Shown: one piece after another, positions 1 through 52,698 of the stretch | How positions within the stretch are numbered: the first letter of the stretch is position 1 | How the letters are laid out: each line of letters begins with the position of its first letter | Assembly: GCF_030028105.1 (NCBI RefSeq) | Contig: NC_092381.1 | Coordinates: 73,186,505-73,250,504 of the forward strand | DNA from: Mobula birostris | Lineage: Eukaryota | Reading direction: 5' to 3' | DNA length: 64,000 nucleotides | Made by a program: the position numbers and the translations under genes | The notes under the pieces: generated by a model | Database searches by the model: none | The model's input: only the letters and a program-made list of their open reading frames with translations | Told to the model about the DNA's origin: nothing

Positions 1-109
1 TCTGCAGTGGCAATGTATGATAATGCACCTTCACAAAATTCCCAGGAGACTGACATATGTCCAGAATCACAGTCCATGTAAGCATCAACGTTCTGGGGGA
101 CACACGGTA
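1..109 (-). CDS. Exon M4, unit U5 (truncated by window edge)
   Basis: Acceptor ttgcag|; VPCVPQNVDAYMDCDSGHMSVSWEFCEGALSYIATA. Confidence 0.85.
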
Positions 110-3100
110 CTGCAAGAAGAAAATTTATCAATAGAGGCTGAAGGGTACATAAAAGGCAACACTGCAAACAATGTATGTAAATTTTAGAAATGATTTTCAA
201 TACTTCACATGTTACCTGCTTTAACTGCCAGAGCAGAGCTGTGTGAGCTGTTACACTCCATGCGGACTGCCTGTACAGTTATGTAGTAATACAGTCCACA
301 GTACACATCAGAGACCTCACATTCAGTGCCTGTTGTATTCCAGGAGGCCCAGTGGCCGTTGGTCCCTTGTGCTGTTACGTGGTATGACTCTGAGCCATTG
401 CTGGGATCCCAAGACACTGAGACAGTGTTATTCTCGCAGTTGATGTGAGCTACCACATTCTGTGGGATACATGGTACTGTAGAAAGATGCACAGGAAACT
501 ATTGTAAACAATATAACATGATTACAATTACACAATATCAAATCTTACAATTTTTGTATAGAAATCATAGCTAATTTGTGCAAATCATATTACTACAACA
601 ATGAGCAAAACTGCAAACAATCTTTTTTGTAACATTATTTAAGACTGAATCTTAACAGAGAGTATATATTAGAGTGTTTCCTATATGATAATGGAAATGC
701 TACATACTTAACATGGCCTGAATATTATCTGTTTCTGTCTATTACCATAGGACCATATGATCATAAGTCATAGGAGCAGAATTAGGCCATTCAGCCCATC
801 AAATATACTCCGCTATTCAAGCATGGCTGATTCATTATTTTTCTTAACCCCATTATCCTGCCTTCTCCCTGTAACCTTTGATGCCCTGACCACAGAACAT
901 ATCAACCTCCACTTCAAATATACCCAATGGTTTGTCCTCCCTAGCCATCTGTGGCAATGAATTCCCCAGACTCACCACCCCCATCTCAGTTCAAATGAGT
1001 TATCCTTCTATTCTGAGGCTCTGCCCTCTGACCTTAGACTTCCCCACTATAGGAAACATCCTCCCATGTTCACTCTATCCAGGTCTTTCAATATTCGATA
1101 GGTTTCAATGAGACCACCCCTCTATATCTTCTAAACTCCAGCAAGTACAGGTCCAGAGCCATTTAACACTCCTCATACCCTTTCATTCCCAGAATCATTC
1201 TTGTGAACCTCCTCTGGACCATCTCCAGTGTCAATTCATAGCTAAGGGGCCTAAAGTTGTGCACAGTACTCCAAGTACGTTCTAACTAATGCCTTTTGAA
1301 ACCTTAGTATTGCATCCTTGCTTTTATATTCTAATCTTCTCAAAATGAATGCTAACATTGCATTTGTCTTCCTTACCCCTGCTCAACTTGCAAATTAATC
1401 TTTAGGCCATCCTGCACGAAGACTCCCAAGTCCCTTTGCGCCTCTGATTTCTGAATTTTCTCCCCATTTTGAAAATAGTTTACGCCTTTATTCCTTCTAT
1501 CTAAGTGCATGCCCATTCACTTCCCTACACTATATTTCACCTAACCAAGGTGGATTGTATATGAAAGAGATATCTTTGTCTCCTTGCCATGCTAAATATT
1601 TTCATAATCTCAGCAAGCTCTGAAATGATCAGAAAGCAAGGTCTATAAAGTGAGAGTGTTGAACCCTTATTAATGTTACATGATCACCAGATAAGACAGC
1701 ATTCCCAATGCACAGTTAAAGCACAAGCAAGAGGCTTCCTCTATCTGCCAGGATTATCTGCTACCCAATTGAGTTTTTTGCAATGATTACCTATGTTAAT
1801 TATTATTTTACTAACTGTTTGGTGTTGGATATTGATCTCCTGTTTTATCATGTTATGCAATTTTTGAAATTCATTTCTGATGCTCATTCTGTTGATTTTT
1901 ATTGAAAAGGAAAGAATCGTTACCTGTTTGAATTTCAAAAGCTGGACTTGGTAAGCTGGTGCAATTCTCGTCCATCGCTAACACAGTTATATTAAACATC
2001 TGGCCACATGGGAGGCCTACAATCTCACAGTTTGCTCCCGTTGTATTGCAGGAGTAGTCCTCTCCTTCCACTCCTTCTGCCATAGCAGTGTAGTACACTG
2101 CACCCTCGCTCTCCTCCCACCAAACTGATGTTGTGTATTTTCCACAGTCCAAGTGAGCACTTACATTCTGGGGACTACAGGGAGCTTAAGAAATATTAAA
2201 ACATAACAGAATGGAAAAAGGAATAGCCATACATTTACTTAAATTAACATGTATACATCAATAAATTAAAAAAATGGAAACTTCCAAATAAGACCATTAA
2301 TAACTCTTTCTGTGAACATGGGAAAGCTTTGTATGGGACAGTAGAAACATCAACAACTAAATGATTCAATCTGGCTACTGTGTGATAGTCACATATCTAG
2401 AAGTTGCCTTGATGAACTCCCTGGGTTTCACTACTATATAATACCTGTCGCACCAGACAGTCAGCCATTCTTGTCTGGTGCGTGGTGTCAGGATTAGTCT
2501 CCTTTCGGATTAACTGGGTCAGGATATGAATGTTCCTGACTTGACCCTCGTTTTTTACGAGGCCGAGTGGCTAGCTCAATGCTCAACCCGGCACGGATGG
2601 AAAGCGTGTTCGGGGGGTGGCCCGACTTGGATTCGAACTCGGGAGCCTTCACTCCGGAGTCCAGCGCTGATGCCACTGCGCCACCAGCCGGCCAGAGGCT
2701 AACTTGATCAGTACTGGAAGAAGTCAATCAATATCAGATATCGGAATCTAAAATAATTGATAATTTACCATTATTGGGGATTAAATCATTGAATCCTGCA
2801 TGGATTTATTAATTTCAAGGCATGCTTGATAGTATTCACATCATTAGGTGGAGGATTAGAGCACAGATATTGTTTCAGGTTGTTTACAGAAAAAAGTTGA
2901 AATGTTCAAAGTAAAATTTATTATCAGACTATAAACAAGTCACCACGTATAACCTGGAAGTTAGACGAAATGGTGTTGGAGCGGTTATGGTAACATAACA
3001 TGCAAAATCTAAACAGCAATTTGATCTTGTGTGGCTGACTAATAAGACTTAGGTACAACTGATAATTTTTATTTAATATTATGTCAATATACTGCTCTAG

Positions 3101-6100
3101 TATACTACTGAATTAAAATAATGGAATTGCATTTTTCGATTATATGTCATAGTCAATAATCAATGGATTACCTGTCTGTATTTCAACTGCTGAACTCAGA
3201 GAGTGGTTGCAGGTCCTGTCAGATGCTACAACATACACAGAATATAACTGGCCACAGAGCAGCATGGGTGTTCTACATGATGTTTCTGATGTGCTGCATG
3301 AAATGTTGCTCCCGTCAGCTCTTTCTGCAATGGCAGTGTACCACAGTGCTCCTTCACTATCATCCCACAATACAAGAGCTGTATTGAGGTTACAATCCAG
3401 TTGTACTTTGACATTCTGTGGGTCACAAGGGACTGAAAATAAGGTTGAAAGTTAAAGTGGATATCAGGCAATGGATCAAGCATTGTGGATTCAAATAAAC
3501 CGATTGACAAACTTACTAAGTTAGTAATAACTTTATTGGAGTTTATTATTCTAAATCATGGAAATGGTTAGCAATTTAAAGTATCAGTGTTGATGAGATT
3601 CACTCTCTAAATTTGTGAACATGATGTTTGAATTCATTGCAGATGATACAATTGTTAGCAGAAGTGGAATCCATGAACTGAAGGGCAGGGGCAGCATGGT
3701 TATCAAATGATTAACAGACAGTAATCAGAGGTGGTGGTAAATTGTTGGTTATCATACTGTAGAGAAGTATGTAGTCGTACTCCTATAGAGTTAGGACTTC
3801 ATTCAATAATTAATTAATTTTATATATTAACATCTTAGACAAGTCTGCCAAAGATTCTAAACATAGTATATAGTTAACAGCATGATGGGGAAGGATTTAA
3901 GTAGGACATAGAATTATGAGATGGATGAAAATACTAACAGTATCAAGTAATCCTTTTTTGAAGGAAAGATGAGGAAGAACATAAAATAAATGGTACAATA
4001 TCACCAGTAAATCTGCTGTTTAGAAACAAAGATCTTTGAAGCTAAACTTTTCTCATTTATTTATTATTTTTTTCCAGGGATTGGACATAGTGGGAAAGAC
4101 CAGTATTTATTTCTCATCCCTAATTGCCTTGAGAAGGTGGTGGTATGCTGCCTTCTTGAACTGCTACTGCAGTTTTGATTAAATACTTTCATAAAGCGCT
4201 TGGAGAAGCATTTCCAGAATTTATACTGAGCAGTGATGAAAGAGTAGTAATATATTTCAAAGTTGAGATTTGTGACTCAGAGGGGAAGCTTTAGGTTATG
4301 ACTTATTTGTGTGCATGTTGCATTTGTGCTTCATGGTGGCAGAGGTTACGGATCTGGGAGGTGACTTTAGGATAATTTTGGTAAGTCACTGCAATGCATT
4401 TTGTAGAAAGTACATATTGCAGCCACTGTACATTGGCGGTGAAGGAAATGGATGTTTAAGGTGGTAAATTGGATGCCAATCAAGTAGGTTGCTTTGTCCT
4501 GGAAGGTATTAAAACAGAAGTTACTGGCAGCACTCAGCATCTGTGGAGAGGGAAACAGAGTTAACGCTTCGGATTGATGATACTTCATCAGAATTTGGAA
4601 AAGTTGGAAATGTTATAAGCCACAGAAAAGTGAAAGTGGTGAAGCAAACAAAGTAGATGTTTGTGATTAGACTGAAGGTCAAGAGAGACTGAATAACACT
4701 GATATTATAGTTGCTAGCTGAAGGAGGGTGGCTATGGCTTGTTGATCACAGCTAATATATCCAGAGGAGAAGTAAATAGAGAAAAAAGAATGAGGGCCTG
4801 GAGAGAGGGAAAAATCAAAGCTGCAACTTTCCTGCAGTTTCTGGAAAACAAGACCATGAGAAATACTGGAAGTATTAAGCAAATCAGGCAGAACCTTAGA
4901 GAAGGAGTAGTTAACAACACCAATGGATGACCTTTCATCAGAACCAGAATTTTCAGATATAGATAAAAAAAGCTGGTTATCTGAAAATTTTCAGTTAAAT
5001 ATTGAGCTTTGATTCCCCCTTCCTTGTAAACTAAAACATCTTTTCAACTTCCCCAGGTCTCATGAAAGGCCAACAATGTGAAATGCTATTTGCCTGATTG
5101 ATGAGAATTTCCAGTATTTTGGATTTCCACCGGTTGCAGCTTTTTGATTTTATTCATGATAGTTTTGAGCTACTTCAGTGCTGCTGGTGGTGGATTCATC
5201 TGAGAAAGTGGGTAACTTTCCATCGTATGCTTGACTTGCACCTTGTGGATGGTCGAAAGGCTTGTGATGTCAAGTGGTGAGGACTCTTGTGCTCACGTGA
5301 CTCATTCATTTGAATTTCCCATGAATGGTGACCCCAGGATGTTGAAGCATGCAGGATACAATGTAATGGTGGTGACATTGAACATCAGATGGAGGTAATC
5401 AGGTCCTCTTGTTGCAGATGGTCAGTGCCTGGCATTGAACATCAAAGGGAGGTAATGAGGTCCTCTTGTTGTAGATGGTCAGTGCCTGGCATTGAACATC
5501 AAAGGGAGGTAATCAGGTCCTCTTGTTGTAGATGGTCAGTGCCTGGTATTGAACATCAAAGGGAGGTAATCAGGTCCTCTTGTTGCAGATGGTCAGTGCC
5601 TGGTATTGAACATCAAAGGGAGGTAATGAGGTCCTCTTGTTGCAGCTGGTCAATACCTGGCACTTTGGTGACTTGAAAATTATTTGCCACTTAGCTTGCA
5701 TATTGTCTAGCTCTTACAAAATGCTGGCAAGGGTTGATTTATTTCCTGAGGAGTTGAAAATGAAGCTAAGCATTCCTACTTCTGACCTTAAGAAAGGAAA
5801 GACATTGGTGGCTGGGCTGAGGACACTGTTCTGAGGAACTCCTGCAGGGTGGGCTGATTGACATCCTGCAACCATAACCACCTTCCTTTGTACAAAGTAT
5901 AACTGAAACATTATCCTTGATGCCAACTGACTTCAATTTTTCTATAACTTCTTGACGCCAGACTCGACAAAAACTGCTGTTTTATTGAGAACCTTCTAGA
6001 ATTCAACTAATACTGTAATGAGGTGTTAAGTCAATTGATCCTGACAAATTCCCAAAGTGGCCATCAGATTACTAGTGAATAAGTACCACTGTTGACAAGA

Positions 6101-9100
6101 CCTTCCATCACTTTACTGATTAACCTCAGGAGCATTGGCCATAATTAGCCAGTTTGGATTTATTTTGCACTTTGTGAACAGGCAAAAAGCCAACTTAATT
6201 CACAATAAAAAAAAGTTGCAGATGTTGGGTATCTGAAAGAAAAAAATAAATAAAGTAGAGGAAACCTTCAGCCAGCTAGGTAGTGCTTGTGGAAAGAGAA
6301 AGAGATTTAACTTTCAGATCTTTCAACAGTTACTGCCTAGCTTCTTGAAAACATAAAGCATACTTCATTTGTATTTTAATGTTTCATATTGTCAGGTGTA
6401 TGCCTTTGTTGGGTGTATTACACGGTTGCAATTGCACTGAAACCGCCTGGCATATGGCAGAATTAGCTCTGGAACTCAGGTTTCAGTATTACAGATTAGA
6501 TATCCCAACATGGGAGCTGAACAGCCATTCCTGCACTGTTAGTCCTGGCATCCTGGGTGAGTTACATATTAATTTCAGTGTGTACCACAGATTGCAATCA
6601 ATTCTACCCATTAAGTTTCATTGACCATATCTTTGTATACACAATTCAATTAAAACCATGGAATATAAATCTAATATCCCTCCTACGCTGTAGTTCTCCT
6701 GCCCAGTGACTCAGGTTAAAAAGAGCCCAATAGATTTAGTGCATGCGAGATTGGTTAGAGATTATGACTTGGTGCATTGGTTTTAGTGCAGGCTCACTTA
6801 TTCTCAGTAGACATGAATAATTTTGACTTAACAAGCCTGTCAATAATAGTGACAAGCCAGTCTTCTCACATGCATGGACAATGTGACCATAGAAGAGTTC
6901 TCCTCCAGGTGGTAAAAAAGCAAGGAAAAAAAATTCTGAATCTTTCTAAATTTCTGGTACTCCCCATTACTGGTATACACTGTTAAATTCTGCACATTAC
7001 ACTTTACAAAGCATGCAAAGTACATGGAGATTTAGTGGAATGATAGCGAAGAATGAGGAAATTCCATTATGTAAAGGCACTGAAGCAAGTGGAGATGGTG
7101 ATGAGTTCAATATTCATTTTATTAAGTACACGGTCAGAATTCCAAACTTCTGGCTGGAGCTAAAACAATGTTTATCATTCTATGGTGGTCCTTACGAATA
7201 GCTTTGATCGTTTCCAGGGTGAGCATGGACAGTGGTTGATTTAGAAATACACCTGTGAAAATGCTGCAATCCCGTACAAATAACATAGGGAAATGATCCA
7301 TTAATCAGAACTCACACGGTAGCAAATATTACTCCCATTACACCACTGGAAAAATCTCGAGTTGAGGTAGAAATGACATTTTGAAAAATGTTTAACATGA
7401 GGATAATTTTTAAAAAGTGAGAAATATACACAATGATATATTGCCAGTGGATTGCAAGACTTCATTTGCTGATCTGTCACAAAAAGATTTCAGGAAATGA
7501 GCAATACCTGAATGTACATTCACCACTGCTCTCTGGGGCCTCCTGCAGATGTCATCTGTTGCTAGGACAGAGATTGTATAATATTCACCACACTGCAGGT
7601 CCTGGATTTGAGCCCTTGTACCACTTGTGTTGAATAAAGCTGTAACTCTTTGACTGTCTCGAACAGTCACAGTGTATAACTTTGCTCCAGCAGTCTCATC
7701 CCACCAGAAGGATATTGTGCTCAAATCACAATTAAGCTCAGCCGTTAGGTTCTCAGGAATGCAGGGTGCTATTTAGAAAATAAATATCAATTCCTGCTGT
7801 CCTGCAGAAACACAAAATGAATACACATGGGAATTATTTCCTTGCTGAATGTTACTTACCGGTTTGTATTTGGACAGAAGTACTCGAAATGCCATGCCGG
7901 CTGTAACTCAGTGTCGTTACGGTTATGTTATAGGACTGTCCACAGTGTAAATCCAGCATTTCATGGTGTGTCTCTGTGGTGTTGTGTGAGTGTATATGAC
8001 CATCACTGCCTTCTGCAGTTACATCGAATGAGGTCGCTCCACCAGTCCTTCCCCAGGACACCACCACTCTATTGGAGTTACAATCCACATTGGCAATGAT
8101 TTCATCCGGGGCACATGGTGCTGTGGAAAACGAAATACAAAAATTAAACTCCACTACCTGCTAGCAAATCTCTGAAGTTAAACATCTTCAAATTTGTTCT
8201 ACATTTGTCCACTCAGCCCAGCCATATTAGAATCAAAGGAATTCCAGGTCAAGAGAGAGGGTTGAGAAAGTCTGCAGATGCTGAAAATCCAGAGCAACAA
8301 ACACAAAATGCTGAAGGAACTCAGCAGGTCAGGCAGCATCCATGGAAATGAATTAACAGATAACGTTTTGGGCCAAGACCTTTCTTCAGGACAATACTTA
8401 GGGTCAGTGTGATTGGCACCAAGTTTGAAAACTAAGTCATCAATGTTGACTGGAAAAATTAGAAGGATTCTGTTTCCAAAATCCATAGAGAATTTTGGAA
8501 TTTATGGAGATGAGTGAAAGTTGAACACCATGCAATGATTGGAAATGAAATCAGTGGAGCTTGGGAGTGCACTTCCATAGCAACCTGTCATCACACCGAG
8601 AAAAGGAAACTGAGAGACAGGCTAGAGTGACTAAGTTGACAGACAGTGCTTCTGTGTCCGTTTAGTTTAAAACCAATTGCTTGAAAAAGTAGGCACATCA
8701 GAATGATGGACAATTGGCCACTCCAATGCCCGGTTATAACAGTGAGTTGCTGTGTACCATCTCTGTATACTTCAGCATTGCAATGCAGTTTTAACTTTAA
8801 CCACCCAAATGTAAATTTAGCAGGAGGGCAATTTAAAACAATGTTGGAATAATTTACAATGATTATTGTTCAATCGAGTAAAGATTACTAGGCACATAAT
8901 AGCAGTTCGGCGACGTCTGTTCCAGTTAACGATACTGAAGAACACTTTTGAAGAAGTATGCACTACTGTGTCACCAGGGAACTGCCTTTTCTAACCAAAT
9001 AATTCAGTTTAATGACTTTTCTTCAGAGATCGCTGTACATAGCCTGGCTGCTCACTTTTCCATGACTCCTACGCTGCAAACACTTCAAAAATAATCTCTT

Positions 9101-12100
9101 CATTGCAAACTCCATCAGGACATTGCAGGGAGATGAGAGGTGCTATATAAAGCTTTATTTCTTTTTTACCTGTATGAATTTCGTAGTGGGAGCTCCGGAA
9201 GCTGCTGCAGGTTTCACCAAATGCGAGTACAGAGATGTTGTATGTTTGGCTGCAGTGAAGATCTGGGACGAGACAGTTTGTTTTGGATGTGGTACAGGTG
9301 GCTGTGTGTCCATCGCTCCCCTCAGCCGTAGCGGTGTACCACACTGTGAGGTTACTCGGCTCCCATGATACAAAGGCAGTGACACCGTCACAATCAGCTT
9401 GTACGTTCTGAGGGGGGCAAGGGACTTGGAGAGAGACAAACACATGAATTACTGAAATGAGTGAGTACTTCAAACGGCAGATGTCAGACATTGGGGCAGC
9501 ACTAGACTAGGCCATTCGTTCCCTCAATTTGTTTCCGCTGTTTCATTAGATTAAGGCTGAATTATCCACGAGCACCTTGTTTTCAATTCCCTGAACATCC
9601 TCAGCTGTCAAAATTTGAAAATGCCTATTAATCTAACATCGTCAGTCAGGCAGCAAACTCCTGATTGCCATTTTTAATTATGTTAAATTGTAATTGTTGA
9701 TCCCATCCCTGAAGGATCTTTCTGTAATTTTAAACTGATTTCCCCTTTGTTCAGAAATCCTCTGCCATTGGAATTAGTTTCTGTCTCCACAGACAAATCT
9801 TCTAATCATCTTTAAAAACAGTTCACCTCTTAATTTTAAAAGAGTACACCTTTGGTCTTATCTGAAGCCAGGATCAAGTTTCAAGCTCTTATCCTCTGCA
9901 GTTTTGCTCTTGAAGTTTCCATTGTTCTTATGTATTCAGTAAACAGCCTCAGACCAATGAATTGAAACAGCAAATGCTAGTTTCAAGTTGATGATGTTTC
10001 ATTAGAACTGGGGAACAAGTTTTAAATTGCAAAAGAAATAGGAAGGGACAGAGAGAACAAAGAAATGTTATAGGGTGCACGTGAGGAGATCTTGAACGAG
10101 CTGTCAAAGACATACTAGTTGGTGGGTAAACTGGTCATTGTAAATTGTCCTGTGATCAGGCTAGGGTTAAATTGAGGGTTGCTGGGCGGCACGACTTGAA
10201 GGGCCAGAAGTGCTTGTTCCACACAGTATCTCAAAAAATAAAAATAAAAAAAAAATAAAAGAATAGTGGAGGTATGTCTGGAATATATAAACAAAGGGAA
10301 TCAAATCTATCTGTGGGAGTGAGTTGTCAGAGGAAGTGATTGAGGCTGTTGTAAAAAGACAATTGGACAGGTAAATGGATTGGAAAGATTTAGAAAGTTA
10401 TGAGCGAAATGTTGGCAAATGGGACTAACTTAAATGGGGCAATGGGTCATCTCAGTCAGCACGGGCCAGCTGGGTCAAAGGGATTCTTTTTGCACTGTGA
10501 AATCTGAACTACCAATACAGTAATGTGCACATCTCCCCTGTGACAACGTAGCTTTCTCCAAATGCTCGAGCTTCATTCTATAGTATATACCAACAATGTG
10601 TGTGGCTAGGTCAATTGTCCCTACTGTGTAGGAGAGTGGTAGAATCTGGGGGAAGTTGATGGGACTGTGGGGAGATTTGAATTGGCTTAGTGTAAATGTC
10701 TTTTTTGTCAGCATGATCGTCAAAAGGATGAAGGGCCGGTTTCTGTGCTGTGTCACATTATAACTAAGATTTTTTCCCTCTTTTCCAATAGTTCTGATTA
10801 GTTATCTTCTCCTTGTAACAATTCTTCCAGATGTGACTCCTCCACCAGGCTCAGTATGCACTATAACTACTTTGTGTCAGAGATTTATGAGCATGCTGCC
10901 TGGACTAGAGATCCTGAGTTATAGGGAGAGGTCGGCACACTGGACCTTTGCTCCCTTGTGCTCAGGAGGATGGTTGGGGTGGGGGCAGAGGTGACCTCAT
11001 AGAAATCTATAAAATCATGAAGGCTGTGGACAAGGTGGAAGGTCTTAGCCTCTCACCCGGGGTTGTGGGGTCAGAAACCATAAGGCACAAAAACAAAATA
11101 ATTGGCGAGAGACTCAGAACAGACCTGAGGGAACTTCCTTGCATAGAGGGCAGTGAATAGTTGGGATGAGCTGCCAGAGGAGGTAGCTGAGGTGGGTACA
11201 ATTGTAACATACAAGAGGCATTTGGATAGCTACATGGAGCGGAGGAGCTTGGGCGACTGGCATTAGCATGGACCCGTTGAGCTAAAGAGCCTGTTTACAT
11301 GCTGCTTGATTCCATGTTAAAGCCCTAGTGAAGATATGCATTGCACTCAGACAGAAAAATGTAGAGAAGTAACATTTACTTTGATTAAATGTGGTAATCT
11401 ATAAAAATCAGTTGGCATATTCCTTCCTCTGGATGAAATACCTTGAACAATATAACTTCATTTTATGCTTAAACATAATATTAGTAGATTGTTTTATTTT
11501 GGTAACTATTGTGATTGGTTTGGTTGCTGGGTGTGATACAGACACGGGTGAGTTGCCATCTGTGACTGGACAGAAGACAAATCCCAGGAGAGGCTTAGAG
11601 GGAGCCTGTAAATTCTGTGATTTGGGCCCCAGGAGCAGCTAACATGAAGATCAGTATCTGTGGGAGTGGATAAGAGGTAGGCCCGAGGTCCCGGAAAGAG
11701 AGCTGGCTTAGCTGATCCAGCCTATTGTGATACTGTGGAATTGGAATTTTCTGCAATTTTGTTATTTAGGTTCTGACATAGTCAATGACCTGAAACATTA
11801 ACTCTTTCTCATCATTGACACTGCTTAAATTGTTAACTTCCTTCATTTCTAATTTCTTCCAGAATTTCATTAAGTCTTTGTATCCATTTGGCCAGCAAGG
11901 AAACAAGGATTGCCAGTTGTCATTTGGATTGAATTCAGCCTATGAATTCAACACAGGCTACAGTGTTTAATTAGGACTTGCAATTGCAAGGGTCAAGAGA
12001 GGCTACTTTTAGTGGAGGAGAAGGGAGAATACTGGATAGAAACCCTCTGATCACTCAATACTTCTACTGAATGAGTTCACACTGAAGATCCAGAAACACT

Positions 12101-15100
12101 CAGTGATTTTTCCAATTCTGAGATCTCAGAATAGTTCTTCCTTCTGTAGTGGCATCAGCTTTTGTCTTACACGCCAGAGACTTTAGCAACGTTACCTGTC
12201 TCAGTTTCAAACACTGAAGCGTTTATACTCTGACAGTAAGCATCCACTGCTTTTACAGTCATTGAATATGTCTGACTGCAGTGCAGATCTATGAAATCAC
12301 AGCTCGTCTCTGTTGTGTTACACAGTGAAACGTGTCCATCTTGTCCTTCTGCTGTTGTAATGTACCACATGGCACCCTCAGCCTTTGCCCAGGTCACTGA
12401 CGTACTCCTGGTGTCACAGTCCAGGTTAATGGAAATGTTGTCAGGTGCACATGGGGCTGCAAGGTACAGAAACACAAACCAGGAGGAAATTGTTACAAAA
12501 CAGATCTTTCAAAATGTTTGGTTATGACAATGTAAAATTTACTTCTTAAAAATAGATTATAATGGGTAATCCTCACTCCATTTACATAGAGAATTTCTCC
12601 ACATGCCTTAATTTTGATATCTTTGGCTTTGTTAAGAATTATACTAAAAAGCTTCCCATTTCCCTTCTGACATGTCGGTCTACAGCCTCTTCTACTGCCA
12701 CAATGAAGCCGCACTCAGACTGGAGGAGCAACACCTCATAATCTGTCAGGGCTGCCATCAACCTAACAACATGAACATTAATTTCTTTAACTTTTGGTAA
12801 TTTATCTCCCCTTCTCCTTCTCTCTTCTTTCATTCCTCATTCTGGTTCCCCTCTCACCCCTTCGCACCTTCCCATCTCCTTCCTTGGGTGCCCTCTTTCT
12901 TCCATGGTCCATTATCCTCTCCTAACGGGTTCTTTCTTCTTTACCTTTTCCACCTATCACCTCCCAGCTCCTTACTTCATCCCCCCTTCCCACCTATCTA
13001 CTCACTCATCTGGTTTAACCAATCACCTGCTGACTTATACTCCTTTCCCTCCCCCTCAACTTCTTGTTCTGGCTTCTTTCCCCCTTCCTTTCCAGTCCTG
13101 ATGAAACCTCGCACCGTTGGCCTGAAACACCAACTGTTTATTTCCTTCCACAGATGCTGCCTGACTTGCTGAGTTCCTCCAGCACGTTGTGTCTGTTGCT
13201 CAAAGTTTCCAGTATCTGCAGAAGCTCTTGTGTTTATGATTCCCAGTAGATAGACATTTTGCCCATTCCTGCCACCTGAACTGAAGTGATTGTGGATGTG
13301 GATCACATTACACGACCAACCAATCTAAATTTTGTTTTAGTAGAGATATTTTTATCTAAGAAGGAACAGCTGCTGAAAAAGAAATTATTATAGTAAACTG
13401 ACTTAGTTTAGTATGAAAAATAATAATTCAAGAAAAGAGACATACCAGTGCTGAACTCAAACTGAGAGCTTTGTGAGGTGTCACACACACCATCCAGCGC
13501 TGTCACAGTTAAATTGTACACCTGTCCACAGTATAGGTTGGTTATCTGACATTCGGTACTGGCCGTCTCACAGGAAACTGGGTGCCCATCACTTCCTTCT
13601 GCTGTTGCCGAGTAAGAGACTGCACCTTTAGTGTGGCTCCACAGTACTGAAGCATCGTTTGTGTCACAGTCTACATGGACATCGAGGTTCTGTGGGATGC
13701 ACGAAACTAGAAATGGCAAACAGAAGACAAGCATTGTCAGCGGCTTTATGGATGGTTTACTTAGCCAGAACCTTCAATTAATTTTACAGTATGTGGCTTT
13801 ATAAAATTGGGAGTACACACCTTTTTGAAATGTACCGCTTGTATGTGATATACATACACACTCAGTGGCCATTTTAATAGAAACAAGAGTTGAACCTGGT
13901 GTGTCTTCTGGCGTGTAACCCATCCACCTCAAGGTCTGACGTATTGTGCTGCTCACCACTGTTGTAATGTATGGTTCTTTGAGTTACTGTCAACTTCCTG
14001 TTAGCTTAAACCAGTCTGGTAATTCTCCTCTGTCCTCTGTCATTAACAAGGTGTATTTGCCCACAGAACTGGATGTTTTTTTTTGCACCATTCCCTGTAA
14101 ACTCTAGACTGTTGTTTGTGAAAATCCCAAGAGATCATTAGTCTCTGAGATACTCAAACCACTCTGTGCGGCACCAACAATCATTCCACAGTCAAAGTCA
14201 TTTAGATCATATTTCTCCCCATTCTGACATTCATTCTGAACAACAACTAAATCTCTTGACCATGTCTGCATGCTTTATGCATTGAGTTTCTGCCACATGA
14301 TTGGCTGATTAGATAGCAGGTGTACCCAATAAAGTGGCCAATGATTTGGACAAAAAGTAGGTGGGCTGATTAGTAAGTTTGTCAATGCTCTTGATCGTCA
14401 GCAAGGTTATCAAAGGAGACATTAGGATATGAGTCAGTTGGAAAGGTTAGCAGAGGAGTGACAGGTGGTGTTTTATCTGGACAACTCTGAGGTGTTGCAC
14501 TGTGGGTGGTCAAATGTAAGAGGGAAGTATACAGTAAATGGCAGGACCATTGAGAGCACTGATTCGCTAAGGATTCTTGGAACATAAGTCTAACTCCCTG
14601 AAAGTGGCAACACCAGTCGATAGGATGATGAAGAACTCATAAGGCACAGTTGCTTTCATTGGTCAGGGTGTTGAGTATAAAGTTGAGCAGTCATGTTGCA
14701 GCCGTATAAATCTTCGGTCAGACCACATTCAAACTATTCTGATTGCCACATTTCGGGAAGAAAATGGAGACTTTGGGGAGAGTGCAAAAGAGGTTCACCA
14801 GAATGTTGCCAAAACTAGAGAGATGTAACTCTAAGGAGTGGTTAGACAAACTTGGATTGTTTTCTCTGGAGTGCCGGAGACTGAGAGGCAACCGGATATG
14901 AGTATCAAACACTATGAGAACCACAGATGGTGTCGTTGCAAAGTCTCTTTCCCAGAGTGAAAATATCAGATACTAGAGAGCATGGCCATAATGTGTGATA
15001 AGAAAGTTTAAAAGAGATTTTTGAAGTAAAACGTTTTTAGGTGGAAAGTGGTAGGTGAACAGAAATCTCTGCCAAGGGAAGTAGTGGAAACAGATAAAAT

Positions 15101-30100: not shown

Positions 30101-33100
30101 GAAGGAATGAGAGAAACAGGATAGATAAAGGCTATGTCCGACCTTCAGTTCAGCTGAAGTACATGCATCCAAAACAGCATTCAGTGTTTGTAAGCCTTTC
30201 TTCTGTTCACCAGTGAGAGGGTTTTGGTGAATGAATTATGTGACGTGCAACATTAACAAATCTCGTATGGTTATTATTGTGAACAATCATCGCTTTCAAC
30301 AAAGTCCAGTTTAGATTGTTGTTGTACGAACAACAGTCAAGTCTATTGCGCTTGATAGTTACTTCTAAATTGTGCTGGCCTTTGTGCTTGTGAGGTAGGC
30401 TTGATGAGTAGTAAGTCTTTTCTTGGATTTTGCATATACTGTATGTAAATTCCTACTTTCTTGATGAAATGCACGTGGCTTTTCCGAAGGGATATATTAT
30501 GGTGTCCCAGAAAAGAATGCTGGAGAAAATTAGGTGAATTTTGAAAAGGAAATGTAGCAAGATGGGTAGATTGGTGGTTGAGAGGATTTAATCAACAAAA
30601 TAATGAAAGCTTTTTTGCAACTGAGAAGAGACGACGTGACTAACTGTTGCTGCCTGTGTAGAGAGATATTCTGTGGTTAGAAAATATGCTGAAAGCAGAA
30701 AAGAGAGAAGTTGTCTGACATGGATTGACAGAAGACATGGATATCAAGGGGATGTGCAGATTAGTGCCAAAGGTAATTTATCACAAATAGGTATGAGATA
30801 TTAAATTTCTAGGAAAAATAATAATTGTAAATACACTATTAACAAAGTTCATTATAATTCCAGCGTCTTTTGTCAACACCTTAAAATCTACACTGGTTGG
30901 CGTACCTTGCTGTAAGTTTTACTGTGACAATGAAGCATCAGTTAATAAACTACCTGTTTGAATTTCAACCACTGAGCTCAGAGAATGGTTGCAAGTCTTG
31001 TCGGATGCCACAACATACACAGAATATAACTGGCCACAGAGTAACACGGGTATTCCACATGATGCTTCTGACGTTCCACATGACACAATGCTCCCATCAG
31101 CTCCTTCTGCAATGGCAGTGTACCACAGCGCTCCTTTACTGTAGTCCCACAGAACCAGAGCTGTATTGAGGTTACAATCCAGTTGTACTGTGACATTCTG
31201 TGGCTCACAAGGGACTGAAGATAAGATTGGAAATCAAAAAGAATGTAAGACGAGAGGATCAACTATCGTTGTGAATTTACCAAATATTTACTTTAAGATC
31301 TATGGGCTCTAATGCATCATTCATTAGATGCTTCACTAAATATGTGAATAGATATTTACTTATTTTAGCAATGACTGAATAATTTTAATTATTCTCATTC
31401 CTTATTTCTCAAACTCATCATTGCAGACATTATGTTGAAATCAATATTTATGTCTCTGATCAAAAGGGATTGATGAACAAATTCCCAATGGAGCTGGCTT
31501 CCTCATGCCAGATCACACAAAAGCAGAGCAAAATGATTACAGATTCAACAGGTACAACAGGGCAAGTATAAAATGATGCAGGCTGTTTTCTGTCAAGGTG
31601 ACTCCATCGTCCAGCATCTCGCACACCTCTTATGCTTCTGTTTTTATACAACCATAGAGTCATGCCGACTTTAAGCAATTAAACAACCCATACAAGCATT
31701 AGTACTTTGGATGGGACAGCTTTTTAAAATGCATTTTCATTAAAACGGTCTTCCTTTTTTCTCACGAATCCATAAAGATATCCTCAAAACTTTGGGAATA
31801 GGGTGTTTAATTGATAACCAAGCAACTTTTTGAAAATGTTATTATTTTGCAACACAGAACACTGCATTGTCTGTACCAGCGGGAATATTTTAATTGAAGG
31901 GGGTTTGAAAATGCTTTCCTACAGTTCACACGTTAGGACAAAGGCATGAAAAAATAGAGAGGAATTACATCTGTGGAATCACAACTATGAGTTCAAAAAA
32001 TTAACTTTCAAAGACATCTTCAACATGGGCATAATAAAATAATAACATAAAATGTTTGCTGTTCACACTTAAACATTTAACCTCTCATTGTGAAATACAA
32101 GACTTCATCTGCCAGTCTGTTCTAAACATCTTTACAGAAGTGACTGATGTCTGTATATACATGCACTCTGGAATCTCCTGCAGATGTTACCTTTTGTTAC
32201 AACAGAGACTGTATATGCAGGTTTAGATTTGAGCCCTTGTATCACTTGTATTAAAGACATGACTCTTTAAATGCCTTGAAAAATCATAGTGTATAGCATT
32301 GCTCTGGCAGTCATGTGACCAGGAGGATACTGCATTTGAATCAGAACCTAACTCAGTTGTTAGATTCTCAGCAATGAACAGTGTTACTTGGAATATAATT
32401 TTTCCTACTGGCCCAAAATATGCACAATAATATAAAATTATTTCCTTGTTATATGCTATTTAAAGATTAGCTGTATTTACCAGTTTGTATTTGGACGGAA
32501 GTACTCGAAATGCCATGCCGGCTGTAACTCAGTGTCGTTACGGTTATGTTATAGGACTGTCCGCAGTGTAAATCCAGCATTTCCTGGCGTGTCTCTGTTG
32601 TGTTGTGTGAGCGTATATGACCATCACTTCCCTCAGAGGTCACATCGAACTCTTTTGCTCCATTAGTCCGGCCCCATGAAACTACCACTCTGTTGGAGTT
32701 ACAGTCCACATTGGCGACAATTTCATCTGGAGCACAAGGTGCTATAGAAACAGAAATACTGCAATTAAAAAGTTCATCTGAGAAAAATCTTAAGAAGTAG
32801 CCCTTCCTAATGTTTTATATGAACTTAAATAGTCCTGGTGAATCTGTCCCCTTTATATTCCACATGTTGCCAACTCATATGTTATTGTGTAATCATTTGA
32901 ACAAGTTCTAGCTCGAGTCATTGATAGGTTATGGTCCATATCCACACATATTTAATCTCTCAGTGCTTTCTATATGAACAGTGAATATAACACATGGTTC
33001 TGTTACAAGATGAGAGGTCTGAAGTTCCATACTAATGATAAGAGACATGAATTTGAGTCTCGCTGTGGCATTCAGCAACTAAAAGTGATCAATTAAAATA

Positions 33101-36100
33101 TCTGGAATTTAAAAAAAACTATCATTAAGAATAGTTATATGAAACATCTAGAATACGATAACAATCTGTCTGGTTCACTAACTCTCTCCAGTAGGAAAAT
33201 CAGTTGTCGTTGTGCAGTCTGGTCTATGTATGGCTTCAAACATGCAGCAAGCAATTCCAGCAAGCAATTTTCTTAGGTCAAATTGGTATGCTAAAACATC
33301 ATATGAATAATATTGGATAAACTGAAGCACCGGGTTTGAACATGACAAAGGTATATCCAGCTCAAAGCACCCTGGAAAGTTCTCCTCACAAACATCTTGG
33401 GTTTTAAGTGAAGTAGAATTTTACTTTATGCACTTTGCTTCAGAGCTCTCCTTTACCAGTAATGGATACATCTGACTCTACAGTTGGATGTATTGGATAC
33501 AGCAGAACTCTGGTGTATCCATCAAAGTAGGTACACAATGTCCATGAGGTCTCATGATGTTGGGTTGTGTCTTACTAATTACCACTCACTTTCCTCTCCT
33601 AGTTCATGGATCAGCATACTCTTTTATGTTGAGAAGTTTGGAAGAAGCACTTAGGGTGGGAGGGCCCATAACATAGTCATCTACAACAGCCCTGACTCAA
33701 AGCCAAATGGGGCTGCGGCAGGTGTCAAGGCAATTAACATGAAGTGATAAACTAGTTAATCTCATACTCAATCTCTCTTTTGCAGTTGTATCTGTCTGAA
33801 ATTTGTCTACAATGTCCTTGTGGAGACAATGTCCAATATCCAATTGATAATGCTCTCCGTCATATTCCGCATTTCTTTCACAGTATTAAATAGGAATGAT
33901 TCACATCAGTTCTAGGAGCTAAGAAATGGGTATCAACCCAGATCTGTAATCTCATAGACTTCCCTGAGGACGAACCCTGGTTCAATGAACAGAACATGCC
34001 ATGAAAACCACAAGGGGCACCTATGTTAATCTATCTTCCTGGTGAAAGCACCACACAGGACCACGAAGACACAAGAGTCTACAGATGCTGGATTCTGGAG
34101 AATCTGCTGGGGAACTCAGTGGGGTGAGCAGCATCTGCCAGAAGAAGGGAATTGTTGATGCATCAGAACTGAGAGTGGAGAGGTGACATGGCCAGTATAA
34201 AGAGGAGGAGAGGGTAGTGGTGAAAAAGATGACTGGTGGACTGCGGAGTAGTGCAAGATTACAGGTAGGTTGTGCCAATCATCAGAAAGGAGTTAAGGTG
34301 GACTTAGAGCCATGTGTCTCTGATAAATGGTGCAGCAGACTGAAGTGATCTTACAACCAAATGATCTGCTCAAAGCTGTGGAACAATCACATCCAGTCCT
34401 GAATGGTAGTGGACAATTTTAAAAAATGGAGAGGAGCCGAAACCAAGAATATTCTTTTTCTCCATATTGACAGAGCCTAGTATATCTGTAAAGATAAAGT
34501 TTAGCAACTTCCAGCCATTATTAAAAAGAGATGCCATCCATCTCAGCTTCCTCCTTCAGCAAAATTGAATTCCCACTGCATAAAGGCCGCGAGTACTGAG
34601 AAAGGGATGACAACATCACAGCTCTAGGGTGGAAAACATGCTTCAGAACTTAGCGCACGAATAGCCAATATGGCCTAGGAGAGAGACAACAATGAAATTC
34701 TTGCATCCAAGCATAAAATTCCTTTGATTTGCAAGTGCACAAAAGCAGGACCAGTCCAATGCAAATAATTACTGTCTCCTCAGCCAGTAATTGTAAATGC
34801 TAAAAGTGTTGCACAAATTGTGTTGTTGTTTGGGACTCTGATGTGAGTAATTTTGCAACTCATTGGCTTATTACCTACAGTTACTACACTTCAAAACCAG
34901 CCTTTTTAATGATGCAAAATGCTTCTGAAAGTGGTCTTAAACATTCCCGTTAAAACTAAATTCAATTGGAATCAAGGTGAAGCTCTCTCATGACTGGAGT
35001 TATATTTGAGAAAAGGGAGTTTGTGGCTGGTGGATGTCATTACACCTTTTTCAAGCCCTCAGGACAATGTTCTAGGTTTAACTATCTTCAGATGCCTCAC
35101 CAATGACCATCCTTCCATCATAGGGTTAGAAATGGGGATTCTTGCTAGGAAATGCACCATGTTCAATCCCATCTCTACCTCTCAGAAAAGTGAATCATGT
35201 ACAACTGCATGCAGTAAGCCTGGATAATTTCTAGTCATAGGCTGATAAACAGAAAGCAGCATTTGCAAAACGCAAGTGTAATGCTGAGATATTCTCTAAA
35301 AAGATGTAATCTAATCATCTCCCCTTGATGATCAATGGCATTACCCTCACTGAAGGAAAACCACCAAAATGCTGTAGTCACCACTGGCCAGAAACTCAAC
35401 AGGACCAGCCATATGAATGTTGTGGAGATAAGAGTAAGTTGGAAGCTGGAAACTTCACATAGACCATAAGATATAGGAGCAGAATTGCAGCATTTGGCCC
35501 ATGTGGCCCTTGTGGCTACGGGGGTCAGGGGGTATGGAGGGGAGGCTGGGGCGGGGTTCTGAGTTGGATGATCAGCCATGATCATAATGAATGGCGATGC
35601 AGGCTTGAAGGGCCGAATGGCCTACTCCTGCACCTATTTTCTATGTTTCTATGTTTCTATGATTTGCTCTGCCATTCCAACATTGCTGATTTATTATCCC
35701 TTTCAATGTCATTCTCCTGCCTTCTCCCTGTAACCTTTGATGCCCTGACTAATCAGCAACCTATCAACCTCTGCTTTAATTATACTCAGTGACCAAGCCA
35801 TTTATGGCAATGAATTCCACAGGTTCCTTACCCTCAGGCGAAAGAAATTCCTCCCTATCTCTGTTCTAAATGGACATCCTTCTATTCTGAGATCGTGCCC
35901 TAGACTCACCGACTATAGCAAACATCACTTTCACTTTACGTCTAGCAACCGCCATCTACAATGAGTGGTGAACTGAAGGCTCTCTCTGTACTGCCTGGCA
36001 ACAACAACAGCTCACAAGGCTGATGCCATCTCGTACAATGCAATCTATTGGAATGGCATCCCATCCCTCATCATAAACATTCACTTTGTCTATCACAAGT

Positions 36101-39100
36101 TCACTCTGAGGCTGCAATGTGTATCAACAACTCCCGGTTCCTCTTCAATTCGCACAACATCCTGACCATGAAAATACATTTTTTTTCCATTGCCGAGTTA
36201 GTATCTTGGAACCCCTGCTGAATATTACTGTGGGAGTGCTTTCAGCAGAGAAAAGAAAATGGTTTAAAAAGGGAATTCAAGAGCACCTACCCAAATGAAA
36301 CTGGGAGGAACTGATAAATGTTGGTCTTGCCAGTGAATTTTTTAATAAATAATAGACATACAATTATGAAATGCGCTTAGATGAAAGATGTAATAGAAAT
36401 AGATCCTCTTTTTCTAATTTGTTTTTGCTGTTCTTCTTCGGCTGTTGTGGCGCATTGGGTGGCATTTTTTTTGCCATTTCCTCAGCATTTGTCTGTTTTT
36501 TACGGGGTCATGTTGCTGCCTCAACACTCATCCCAACACAGATGGAAAGCGTGTAAGGAGCTGGCTAGATTCGAACCGGCACCATTGGCCTCCAAGTTCG
36601 ATGCTGATGCCACTACACCACTGACTGGCTTTTTTCTAATTTACCTGTATGAATTTCGTAGTGGGAGCTCTGGAAGCTGCTACAGGTTTCACCAAATGCG
36701 AGGACAGAGATGTTGTATGTTTGGCTGCAGTGAAGATCTGGGATGAGACAGTTTGTTTTGGATGTGGTACACGTGGCTGTGTGTCCATCGCTCCCCTCTG
36801 CCGTAGCGGTGTACCACACTGTGAGGTTACTCAGCTCCCACGTTACAAAGGCGGTGACACCAACACCATCAGCATGTACGTTCTGAGGGGGACAAGGGGC
36901 TTCAGGACAGGAGGAGAAAACAAAACAAATGGGTCACTAATAAATGATAGAAGTGCACTTTGAATGTTTCTTTCAATATCAAAGTCAGCAGGAAAAAGCG
37001 AAATGTAGAAAATATCCTGGGATATCATGCAGTAACCAACTTCCTGTTCAAAGACACAGTATCTTCAGACTACAATTTACAATTTTATTTTTAAAACCCA
37101 AGGGAAATAGTCTCACAGCAAGAGGGAAGAAGAGGGAAAAATCTTCACTCTACAAATAGAAATTTATAACTACCTTTATAAGGTGTTAAAAGTTGCATGG
37201 AAACCTAGAGAATAGTCCATCCACTTTATTTTTTTTAAATTAGAACTAAAAGCAAACATAACATAAACACCAAAATTACCAATGTGGCTCTCCTGGATCA
37301 CAATCCTCAGAAAATGAACTATCTTGCACTAGATTAACATTTCTCATGCCTCATAAACTCCTTCAGACTTTTACCTGTTTCAGTTTCAAAAATAGAGGTA
37401 TTTACACTCTGACAGTCACTGTCCACTGCCATTATAGTTATTGAATATGTCTGACTGCAGTGCAGGTCCACAAAGTCACAGCTCGTCTCTGTTGTGTTAC
37501 ACAGTGAAACGTGTCCATCTTGTCCTTCTGCTGTTGTAATGTACCACATGGCACCTTCAGCCTTCGCCCAGGTCACTGACGTACTCCTGGTGTCACAGTC
37601 CAGACTGGTGGAAGTGTGTTCCGGTGCACAAGGGGCTGCAAATTACAGAAACACATTATGACTGGGTAAGATACTGCAACTGCTTTTTTTCTGGAGGTGG
37701 TCCAGGTTATATTGCCAATCTTGACAAACAATTTTGAATACAGAGTCCTCAAATAACAGTCACCATATATTTACAAAAAGAAAAACATGTCCTCTTAAAC
37801 ACCATTAATATAGAAAAGCAAAAGTAAGAGAAAAATCCATACAATATTTTTGGACTAAAGTCTTTTGACACATTTAAACAGCATGTTCACAGGCAGGGAA
37901 CATAGTCATAGTCATAGTCATACTTTATTGATCCCAGGGGGAAATTGGTTAAGACGACGGACCCATGTGCAGACAACTAAGGTTAATTTAATGTGGTATG
38001 GTGGTTGGAATAGACCTCCTAGCTGAAGGGCCTTTTCCTGCACAAAACCTGTCAATATTTCTATGTTTTCAATGAAAAGAAAGATTTATCAGGACATAGC
38101 AGAAATGTTAGATTGTTAGTGTCATCTAACTTAAAGTTAGGTATCTAAGTGTCACTTAGAATAATTTGACACAACAAATCATAGATTTGCTAATAAAGTC
38201 CCAATTAAGTGCATTGGAATATTTTTACATTGTGGAATGTACGGTGCACAGTGAATTAATTTGTTGTGGCAAACAGGCTGCACAGTTTAGAATTATGAGG
38301 AACATAGAAGTAGAAAGACATACCAGTGCTAAATTCAAAATGATAGCTTTGTGAGGTGTCACACACACCGTCCAGTGCTGTCACAGTTAAATTATACACC
38401 TGTCCACAGTATAGGTTGGTTAACTGACATTCGGTATTGGCCGTCTCACAGGAAACTGGGTGCCCATCACTTCCTTCTGCTGTTGCCGAGTAAGAGACTG
38501 CACCTTTAGTGTGGCTCCACAATACTGAAGCATCATTTGTGTCACAGTCTACATGGACATCGAGGTTCTGTGGGATGCAGCAAACTAGAAGAGAACAAGG
38601 AGATCAAATGAGTGGCGGATGTACAGCAGCAGCTGACTTGAGGGACCGGTTTTTGTAATTGCTTGCAAAGACACAGGAGAGCTTTTTCAGGAAAATAGAG
38701 TTTTTGCCAGATCAGAAATCAGTTAGTGTGACTGATGGAGAAATCAGCGATTCAGAAATTGGACGACCCAGCAGTTACCTGTTTTCACTGTGATGGAAGG
38801 ACTTTCAGCAGAGTCACAGGTGTCATCGTGCGCAAGGACTGTGACAGTGTAGGTCTCTCCACAGGACAGGTCAGTGATGTCACACAGCGTATCATTGGCG
38901 CTGCATTGCTGCACGTCGCCTCCTTCTGCAGTGGCAATGTATGATGATGCACCTTCACTGAACTCCCAGGAGACTGACAGAAATCCAGCATCACAGTCCA
39001 TGTAAGCATTGACATTCTGGGGGACACACGGTACTGCAAGAAGAAAGAACATAACCTGAAACTGTTGCACAAGTATTCAGCCACATAACAGTTAGATGCA

Positions 39101-42100
39101 AAAGAGAGTATCTGCAGAATTTTAATATACAGTTTTGACTAGAATTACCTGTTTTAACTGCCAGAGCAGAGCTGTGTGAGCTGTTACACTCCATGCGGAC
39201 TGCCTGTACAGTTATGTAGTAATACAGTCCACAGTACACATCAGAGACCTCACATTCAGTGCCTGTTGTATTCCAGGAGGCCCAGTGGCCATTGGTCCCT
39301 TGTGCTGTTACGTGGTATGACTCTGAGCCATTGCTGGGATCCCAAGACACTGAGACAGTGTTATTCTCGCAGTTGATGTGAGCTACCACATTCTGTGGGA
39401 TACATGGTACTGCAGAAAAAATAATCATAGTTTTATAATCAAATTAATAAAGTACTGTCAATGTATTCCTGCATAAATATGTCCATATCTTACAAACAAA
39501 CAGAATTATGAAATTGCACTTTATCTTTACATTAAAAGGTTCTCAAATTGATTGTTGGGAATGAAAGGAAAATAACTGCGTAATCAGTTTTTCAGAGCAA
39601 GGATCAGCAACTGATACAATTGATGATGAAGCTTACAATAATAACTAACTATAGTTATTGTGAATATATTTGATGTAGAGCCCTAATGATGACATTTCGA
39701 TTTATTCCTGCATTTTCTTAACGAGTGAAATAAGGTAGCTTTTGTTATGTTAAATAAAAAGGTAATCATAAGTTTACCTGTCTCAATATTAAAAGCTGGA
39801 CTTGGTAAACTGGTGCAATTCTCGTCCATCGCTAACACAGTTATACTGTACGTCTGGCCACATGGGAGGCCTGCGATCTCACAGTTTGCTTCTGTTGTAT
39901 TGCACGAGTACTTGTCTCCTTCCGTTCCTTCTGCCATGGCAGCATAGTACACTGCCCCCTCGCTCTCCTCCCACCAAACTGACGCTGCGTGCGTTGCACA
40001 GTCCAAGTGAGCACTTACATTCTGGGGACTACAGGGAGCTGGGGAAATCAAAGAAATAAAATAAGTAAAGGGCAGTCAATTTGTATAAATTCCAGACATG
40101 GGTAAATATAAAATAATATTGAAAAAACTCCCACAATAAATTCTAAAAATTCTTATAAAGCATTAAAAATGCCTAGCATGGGATTGAGATTACAAGTTGA
40201 ATGAAAGAGTATAAATGATTGCACGGAAATGCATGACAAGCTAACCAAACATGCTGTAAGCTTGTTTCATACTGGTACATCCCATATCATTAATTAGTTA
40301 CCTGCTTGAATTTCAACCACTGAGCTCAGAGAATGGTTACAATTGTTGTCAGATGCTACAACATACACAGAATATAACTGGCCGCACAGTAACAGGGGTG
40401 TTCTACATGATGCTTCTGACGTTCTGCACGACACGATGTTCCCATCAGCTCCTTCCGCAACGGCATTGTACCACAGTGCTCCTTTACTGTAGTCCCACAG
40501 AACCAGAGCTGTATTGAGGTTACAATCCAGTTGTACTGTGACATTCTGTGGCTCACAAGGGACTGAAAATTAAAAAGGATGTCAGATAAGAGGATCAAAA
40601 AGACGTGCAAGTGAATTACATTGGTACTTGTCACTAGTGCAAAGTGAATGGGAGATTAAAGCAAATCTGATTTATATGTAATTGCACATAAACAATCTCC
40701 TTAAAAGTAGAGCTGATCTATTTCTCTATCATAATAGTTGTAAGAAGTGATTTTCTTGTAGGCATCCTGAGCATCAGAATGAGCTATAGAAGTTACTGAT
40801 GTACCTGAAAAATGTGTTATTTTAAGATAATAAACAGGGATTACCAATTGCCAAGATGAGATAGCTATCTCTGCAGATGGTGCATACAAGTATGGTGGGG
40901 GGGGGGAATAAAAAGAGGGGCGAGTCTTTGATTCCTGAAGGGCAAACCTCCATGCCAAATAAATAACTATTTGCATCTGGCACAAGGATTGTGGCAATCT
41001 AGATTCAGTTAGGAACAAAGTTAAAGCCTTCTGGAAAATATTTCAGAAGACCAAATGCATCTAATTTCAGCATACAGGTTGAGCACCCCTTATCCAAAAT
41101 ACTTGGAGCCCGAAAGATTTTGGACTTCATATTTTGCAATATTTGCATCAATGGGACACAAGGCTAAACAAGAAATCCATTTACATCGCATACTCTGCTT
41201 ATACATGCACCCTGGAAGAAGTTTTGCATGATAAAATAAGTTTGTCTGGGTACATGGATGGCAGGGTTATAGAGGACTATGGCCCAGGTGCAGGTTGATG
41301 GGAATAAGCAGTTTAAATGGTTCTGCATGGACTAGATGGGCCAAAGGGCCAGTTTCTATACTGTACTTTTCTATGAATCTAATCTATTTTTAATAATTTT
41401 GTGCATGAAACAATAATGTGTACACTGAACCATCAGAAAGGTAAGCTATCAATACCATGGCTGCTTAGGTGTACAGTCAGTGTGTTTGGAATCACCATCA
41501 TTTCTGGATTTATGTGCTACCAGTAAGTAGTCTTTGTCTTATACTTACTCATCACACATATATACTGATTCAGCCATTCAGCATGTTAGATTTTCATCAG
41601 CGGTGATCTTGGCAAACTAATTTGTTTCATAATCACCAGATGCTTCAAGACCAAAATCTTTAAAAAGTTAATGCTGTGCCTTTTCTTAAATGTGTGCAAC
41701 CAGCCTGCTAAATATTCACCTTTGTTTCATTTCATCGTGATAGACCTTTGCTTGTTTCATGATCAACATATGTTAAGTGGCATATGTTCACTCCATCCAC
41801 TCTTTCAATACACATTCGAGATCTTTGTTTTCCGCTTTTTGCAGAGTTTTTTTATTTTTCATTAACTTTTGTTCATTACGTATCTGAGGACAGTTCTCAG
41901 AATTGTCTGTGGAGTGCAGAGACTTATGCATGTGCCTGGGAACGTTCCCAGCATCTTGTGGAATTTTCCATTTGTGACATCATGTCAGCACTCAAAGAAA
42001 TTTCAGATTTCAGAGGTTGTCAGATTTTGGAATTTCAGATAAGGGGTGCTCAAACTTTAACCTCTAACCTGAAGGTTCAGCTGTATCTTTTGCAAACCAG

Positions 42101-52635: not shown

Positions 52636-52698
<63 letters not shown>

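Follow-up and report, generated by a model that had tools for sequence, protein, structure and literature searches.

The FN3 repeats of tenascin-X are reported to include some that are conserved in position between species and others that evolve in a concerted manner within each lineage (Hughes 1999, via PMC2267704; also cited in PMC1578592). A comparable situation, with position-conserved and concerted FN3 repeats inside a single vertebrate gene, is found in the stretch of DNA analysed here, a window of 64,000 nucleotides (nt) of the ray Mobula birostris (NC_092381.1, positions 73,186,505 to 73,250,504), which comes from the middle of an FNDC7-like (fndc7rs1) gene on the minus strand. In the middle of this gene a unit of nine exons (M1 to M9) is present in five copies (U1 to U5), with long introns that can no longer be aligned; this differs from tenascin-X, where, to judge from the title of Hughes' article, the introns evolve in concert too. 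We propose, with a probability of roughly 0.83, that the M3 exons of U2 and U5 are near-identical copies of one FN3 exon present in five old units, kept alike by ongoing non-allelic gene conversion that is DNA-templated and depends on similarity.

The mechanism is already known, and this gene is a clean new example of it. In simulations of HMA4 of Arabidopsis halleri, with a model that includes purifying selection and divergence-dependent interlocus gene conversion, exons and short introns keep converting and long introns escape (10.1101/2025.10.29.685298). The simulated pattern counts in favour of similarity-dependent conversion in the present case. However, the HMA4 copies are described there as young tandem duplicates of a whole gene whose long introns have diverged by a few percent, whereas the repeats studied here belong to a single gene, their introns have reached saturation and entire classes of exons have escaped. 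In mammalian KRTAP1, coding regions that evolve in concert give way abruptly to divergent flanks, a pattern for which the authors prefer short-tract conversion together with selection and dismiss reverse transcription (10.1101/282418); those copies are distinct genes, in which the boundary falls at start and stop codons rather than at splice sites. Regional, lineage-specific homogenisation of domains among tandem paralogues has also been described for the protocadherin clusters of a teleost (Fugu), with raised GC content at third codon positions (GC3) in the converted parts (PMC1852091). There, conversion takes place inside one large variable exon of separate genes; moreover, and unlike in the protocadherins, the GC3 signal is weak here (0.51 in M3, M4 and M7 and 0.39 in M1, against a mean of 0.42 and a range of 0.24-0.55 for the non-repeated exons, the copies being non-independent). 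Our search, outside which most subscription journals lay, found no publication on repeat evolution in an fndc7rs1/FNDC7-like gene.

Homogenised exons in the five units

An earlier note on this DNA had proposed recent non-allelic conversion between U5-M3 and U2-M3, and its description of the pair was confirmed, with two qualifications. Both exons are on the minus strand where the note had placed them (Table 1), measure 261 nt, are flanked by AG and GT, and lie 38.9 kb apart. They differ at two of the 261 nt, a synonymous site at exon position 119 and a Thr/Ala site at position 258, and have in common a TGC>TGG (Cys>Trp) change at codon 45, where U1, U3 and U4 keep TGC. This change is as rare as had been claimed, with Trp in 2 of 29 M3 domains from eight species and Cys in the other 27. 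The collapse of identity near the splice sites was also observed, near-identity of the pair extending only 9 nt upstream and 4 nt downstream of the exon, and the intron after U5-M3 does resemble that of U4 (91.5% over 106 nt). To call the introns unrelated was slightly too strong. Long introns at the same position gave no full-length alignment, but a faint trace remains at their donor ends, where nt 30-90 are 54.9% identical in 66 same-position pairs versus 50.3% in 495 other pairs; the M3-M4 introns of U2 and U5 are 59% identical, against a shuffle mean of 52% and maximum of 60%.

U2 and U5 are merely the closest M3 pair, since all 10 pairs differ at 2-10 of 258 coding nt. Synonymous divergence (dS) amounts to 0.018-0.093 across these 10 pairs and to 0.035-0.11 in M4, compared with 0.18-0.66 in M1 and 0.18-0.55 in M2 for the same pairs of units; between U2 and U5 it is 0.018 in M3 versus 0.45 in M1, a difference of about 20-fold between neighbouring exons. 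Synonymous sites of M3 were thus homogenised too, and the long introns cannot be aligned. The pooled ratio of nonsynonymous to synonymous divergence is 0.25-0.42. In M3 the longest identical runs span 58-160 nt, in M4 52-185 nt, and in M1 and M2 mostly 20-46 nt. Mammalian cells need roughly 130-230 nt of uninterrupted identity for conversion, and it should be noted that conversion produces long identical runs just as much as it depends on them.

The units form a mosaic. When the 119 informative sites of M1-M8 are taken in order, neighbours carry the same split in 42 cases versus 14 expected (p<1e-4; maximum of 30 in 10,000 permutations), and 56% of the site pairs are incompatible. The commonest split varies by exon, being U4+U5 in M1 and M4, U1+U4 in M6 and U2+U5 in M8; within M8, the 3' third is nearly identical in all units and the 5' part splits U2+U5 from U3+U4, with the same pairing in Hemitrygon akajei. 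Recent duplication of units or unequal crossing-over could in principle have made this similarity: a crossover may fall inside an exon, two crossovers close together would look the same as conversion, and the number of units seemingly varies among more distant elasmobranchs, as far as their fragmentary models tell. Nevertheless, a duplication would bring identical long introns, none of which is found; the five-unit layout is common to Hemitrygon; partners change between neighbouring exons; and the distance between units does not predict their divergence (rho 0.08). We regard such an origin as highly improbable.

With regard to the extent of the transfer, the earlier note had described it as targeted to single exons, and in this respect it has to be corrected. 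All five M3 exons are homogenised, the partners differ by exon, and tracts cross three short introns (97%, 91.5% and 94% identity). Between U2 and U3, a near-continuous tract runs from position 138 of M3 through the 115-nt intron, with 3 differences, to position 108 of M4. On the acceptor side, 29 of 86 same-module pairs but none of 860 different-module control pairs stay near-identical for at least 15 nt into the intron; on the donor side, at least 12 nt are near-identical in 17/86 and 4/860 pairs, respectively. The exon boundary is best read as the place where homology ends, not as a target.

These intron bases also bear on a route that the earlier note had left open, in which a reverse-transcribed copy of the spliced mRNA (cDNA) recombines with the gene and overwrites exons only. 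The gene is transcribed and spliced, and the near-identity of the U2/U5 pair ends very close to the exon, as such a route would have it. A cDNA donor is unsuited, however, because a spliced template cannot supply the homogenised bases of the three short introns and of the acceptor-side intron ends. In addition, all 43 intact repeat exons keep their introns and none are fused. M3 DNA has at least five genomic matches, all those found being in this gene, with no processed copy; at the protein level 62 of 63 matches (a lower bound) lie inside the gene and the remaining one about 55 kb past the 5'-most exon. Furthermore, M3 homogenisation shows no 3' bias over U1-U5. As a general explanation this route has very little in its favour, and it could be behind a minority of events.

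Grouping by species, probable direction of transfer and reality of the pair

The units are old, because the Hemitrygon model (P0112) has the same five, without M9 in U2 and also in U1. Maximum-likelihood trees were built from proteins of this ray, Hemitrygon, Narcine and Heptranchias, restricted to these species and to rows of at least 80 amino acids. In these per-exon trees M3 splits by species (support 94/91; 98% of 200 bootstrap trees), as expected from recent conversion between non-adjacent units, whereas M1 and M2 group by unit; species clades were rejected by the approximately unbiased (AU) test for M1 (AU 0.0005, 0.0009) and M2 (AU 0.003, 0.003), and also rejected for M9. Residues confined to an orthologous pair of units in the comparison with Hemitrygon number 8 in M1, 20 in M2 and none in M3. 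Likewise, a paralogue is nearer than the orthologue for 9 of 10 M3 copies, against 2 of 10 for M1 and 3 of 10 for M2, with M5-M8 mixed (6-7 of 10). Two M3 residues (codons 24 and 65) are fixed between the two rays over all ten copies, and M3 homogenisation with residues of their own is also present in independent assemblies.

As a separate observation, in models of a skate (Rhinoraja P0004, P0008, P0119) and an electric ray (Narcine P0002, P0006) even the M2 copies group by species. The exons that escaped from conversion may differ between lineages; alternatively, this pattern may reflect younger duplications or a collapsed assembly.

Two codons give information about timing and direction. U5-M3 of Mobula hypostoma has Cys, and therefore Trp reached U5 after the split from that species. 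At codon 73, units U4 and U5 carry Gly in Hemitrygon, Hypanus and M. hypostoma, and U1-U3 of Hemitrygon carry Glu, while here all five copies have Glu and all three copies recovered from M. hypostoma have Gly; the two Mobula species have sorted one old difference in opposite directions. Since the relatives have Gly in U4 and U5, these units are likely the recipients here, which makes transfer from U2 to U5 the simpler direction for Trp as well. A single origin of the Cys>Trp change is likely, followed by copying, probably out of U2 into U5. Cys45 and Cys52 occur together or are missing together in 62 of the 65 exons of the gene, and the Trp copies are two of the three exceptions. To judge from this sequence pattern the two residues likely form a disulphide, and conversion would then probably have spread a destabilising change.

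These observations are hard to reconcile with selection alone, acting on the protein as well as, through splicing or codon use, on synonymous sites, under which M3 would have stayed alike and Trp would have arisen twice. M3 is indeed somewhat conserved between species, with an orthologue distance of 0.067 versus about 0.09 for non-repeated domains. But selection conserves an ancestral state, and at codons 24 and 65 new residues are fixed in all five copies of one lineage; it also leaves unaccounted for the Gly>Glu change in two orthologous units, the co-homogenisation of introns and the shared loss of a Cys kept in 27 of 29 copies. The grouping of M3 by species largely refutes this explanation, whose chances we consider minimal.

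Another possibility is that the U2/U5 identity is an artefact of assembly or polishing, with reads of one unit overwriting the exon of the other. The contigs that bear on this merge paralogues and lose minority variants. Two runs have contigs from which the U2 introns are absent, with canonical ends, so that the gene is spliced as modelled; this absence is the sole reason why runs X9 and X13 were treated as RNA, no run being recorded as such. In a spliced contig of X9, the Trp exon is joined to 115 nt of M2 with 0 differences from U2, and this end of M2 is specific to U2, the other four units departing from it at 12-13 positions. DNA contigs of the best-matching run, X1, from which the assembly may have been made, cover the U2 introns at an even depth of 13-14.6, with 19.7 over the short M3-M4 intron that is common with U3, and one of them extends from the exon start into the U5 intron. 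In favour of an artefact, the lone X1 contig listed at the Trp site reads Cys, as expected with five copies merged, and no read or contig links Trp to the U5 flanks. Nevertheless, 18 nt from its Trp codon U5-M3 carries a synonymous base of its own, and this base would presumably have been lost if U2 reads had overwritten the exon. An artefact could affect only the U2/U5 pair, because the independent assemblies show M3 homogenisation with their own residues. On balance it seems improbable, if marginally less so than the other alternatives weighed here. In a second organism label (runs X5 and X13) the site reads Cys, and merged contigs may hide Trp there. Contigs of X9 and X13 also join position 40302 to 40006 with 32 other letters between them; this probably represents M1-M2 of a different unit whose M2 start has diverged, rather than a new splice.

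Proposed similarity-dependent conversion and the dead exon

In the mechanism we propose, purifying selection on the protein would slow exon divergence enough for strand invasion to continue, and synonymous sites would be carried along with conversion. Long introns would drift past the similarity threshold and stop converting, and the tracts would then end close to the splice sites, except where the adjoining intron is short and has remained similar. This would amount to a bistable feedback: exons that are similar (M3, M4) would keep converting, and those that have slipped (M1, M2, U5-M9 and the dead U2-M9) would largely escape.

The dead U2-M9 exon, with both splice sites lost and frameshifting deletions, is an internal control for the dependence on selection. 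It is 77-78% identical to the live M9 exons of U1, U3 and U4, whose own pairwise differences number 5-9 in 258 nt (96.5-98% alike); the live U2-M8, which adjoins it, differs from U5-M8 at 7 nt. Its loss is likely old, because U2 of the Hemitrygon model is also without M9.

Several results weigh against similarity-dependent conversion or narrow what can be said of it. The comparison between species was made at the protein level only, and the fragmentary Hypanus and M. hypostoma models had their units assigned by domain order and best hit. For M4, species clades were neither found nor rejected (AU 0.22, 0.33). The per-pair tests of the longest run are weak (uncorrected p 0.001-0.44). Short flanking introns fail to predict homogenisation over the nine modules. 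Finally, Trp in U5 is taken from the assembly, no independent read linking it to the U5 flanks.

Short flanking introns had been considered as the reason why M3 and M4 convert most, and were discarded: the correlation is rho 0.33 at the pair level, over 86 non-independent pairs, and rho 0.01 at the module level (n=9).

A more far-reaching reading, which we put forward tentatively and with some doubt, is that the 261-nt exons act as homology islands that would exchange over tens of kilobases long after intron saturation, each exon class being locked in its own state. Partner pairs would persist across ray lineages (U2-U5 in M6 and M8, U3-U4 in M8, in this ray and Hemitrygon), and the exchange would be strong enough to spread the loss of a conserved Cys. 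If this were true, the 43 live exons and the one dead control would make a natural gauge of the conversion threshold in vertebrates. 

Both outcomes predicted by models of divergence-dependent conversion are visible in one vertebrate gene, and the similarity threshold is measurable with a few more ray genomes, because neighbouring exons differ so widely in dS and the dead exon dropped out. In practical terms, exon identity is unfit for dating domain duplications in such a gene, and genes of this kind are prone to mis-annotation; several of the ray gene models examined were fragments.

Layout of the gene and other features of the window

A profile search for FN3-type exons over the window and 100 kb on either side gave 66 minus-strand matches with phase-1 splice sites, 65 after removal of one degenerate partial duplicate, and two further exons were recovered by tblastn with the start of the stingray homologue. 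In total, the gene has at least 67 FN3-type exons, whose domain Pfam assigns to fn3; 43 of the repeat exons are live, U2 being without an intact M9. The nearest proteins are elasmobranch models named FNDC7-like (74-95% identity) and fndc7rs1 of Hemitrygon akajei, with 5,774 amino acids and an N-terminus that resembles a signal peptide, and the gene is colinear with the latter across 64 domains. The non-repeated domains have a mean identity of 97.7% over the 9 domains compared with M. hypostoma and of 91.0% over the 21 compared with Hemitrygon, and the exons of the window match two proteins labelled Mobula birostris at 100%. Cys-rich FN3 domains, one per phase-1 exon, are common to this gene and the FNDC7/fndc7rs1 family, after which its homologues are named; the large number of exons and the higher-order repeat of nine exons set it apart.

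Table 1. Positions of units, exons, introns and repeats, in window coordinates unless stated otherwise
Feature	Position	Strand	Remarks
Unit U1	42551..62114	-	Exons M1-M9
Unit U2	32481..40562	-	Exons M1-M8, without intact M9
Unit U3	21321..31214	-	Exons M1-M9
Unit U4	7508..19208	-	Exons M1-M9
Unit U5	1..3432	-	M1-M3 and start of M4; extends ~5 kb past the window start
U1-M3 exon	57428..57688	-	Cys45
U2-M3 exon	39149..39409	-	Trp codon 39273-39275; Pfam fn3 E=2.9e-7; Trp in spliced contig joined to U2-M2
U3-M3 exon	29389..29649	-	Cys45
U4-M3 exon	15878..16138	-	Cys45
U5-M3 exon (FN3 domain)	216..476	-	Trp codon 340-342
U2 M3-M4 intron	39034..39148	-	115 nt; 97.4% identical to U3 copy 29274-29388
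U5 M3-M4 intron	110..215	-	106 nt; 91.5% identical to U4 copy 15772-15877
U3 M8-M9 intron	21582..21678	-	97 nt; 93.8% identical to U4 copy 7769-7859
M8 exons	at 42916, 32481, 21679, 7860		U5 copy outside the window
Dead U2-M9 exon	32151..32383	-	Approximate ends; both splice sites lost, frameshifting deletions
Partial duplicate L017 of exon 10 start	~82950-83036		Window-equivalent positions, past the window end
Dispersed ~260-nt repeat, examples	43870-44138, 48266-48389, 49159-49416, 49583-49863, 54827-55099		

The degenerate duplicate consists of the start of the non-repeated exon 10 with its acceptor, located about 200 nt downstream of exon 10, after which it breaks up into stop codons. A weak FN3 match at 73375859-73376095 of the contig (minus strand), some 55 kb outside the gene as delimited by its 5'-most recovered exon, may belong to a neighbouring FNDC7 paralogue. 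The intron between U4-M9 and U5-M1 contains a tandem array of a 57-nt unit (window 5373-5662; about 5 copies, 93-95% identity). Lastly, a dispersed repeat of about 260 nt, likely a short interspersed element (SINE)-type element, occurs in the introns in both orientations with 70-94% identity, and insertions like this one account for much of the differences in intron length.

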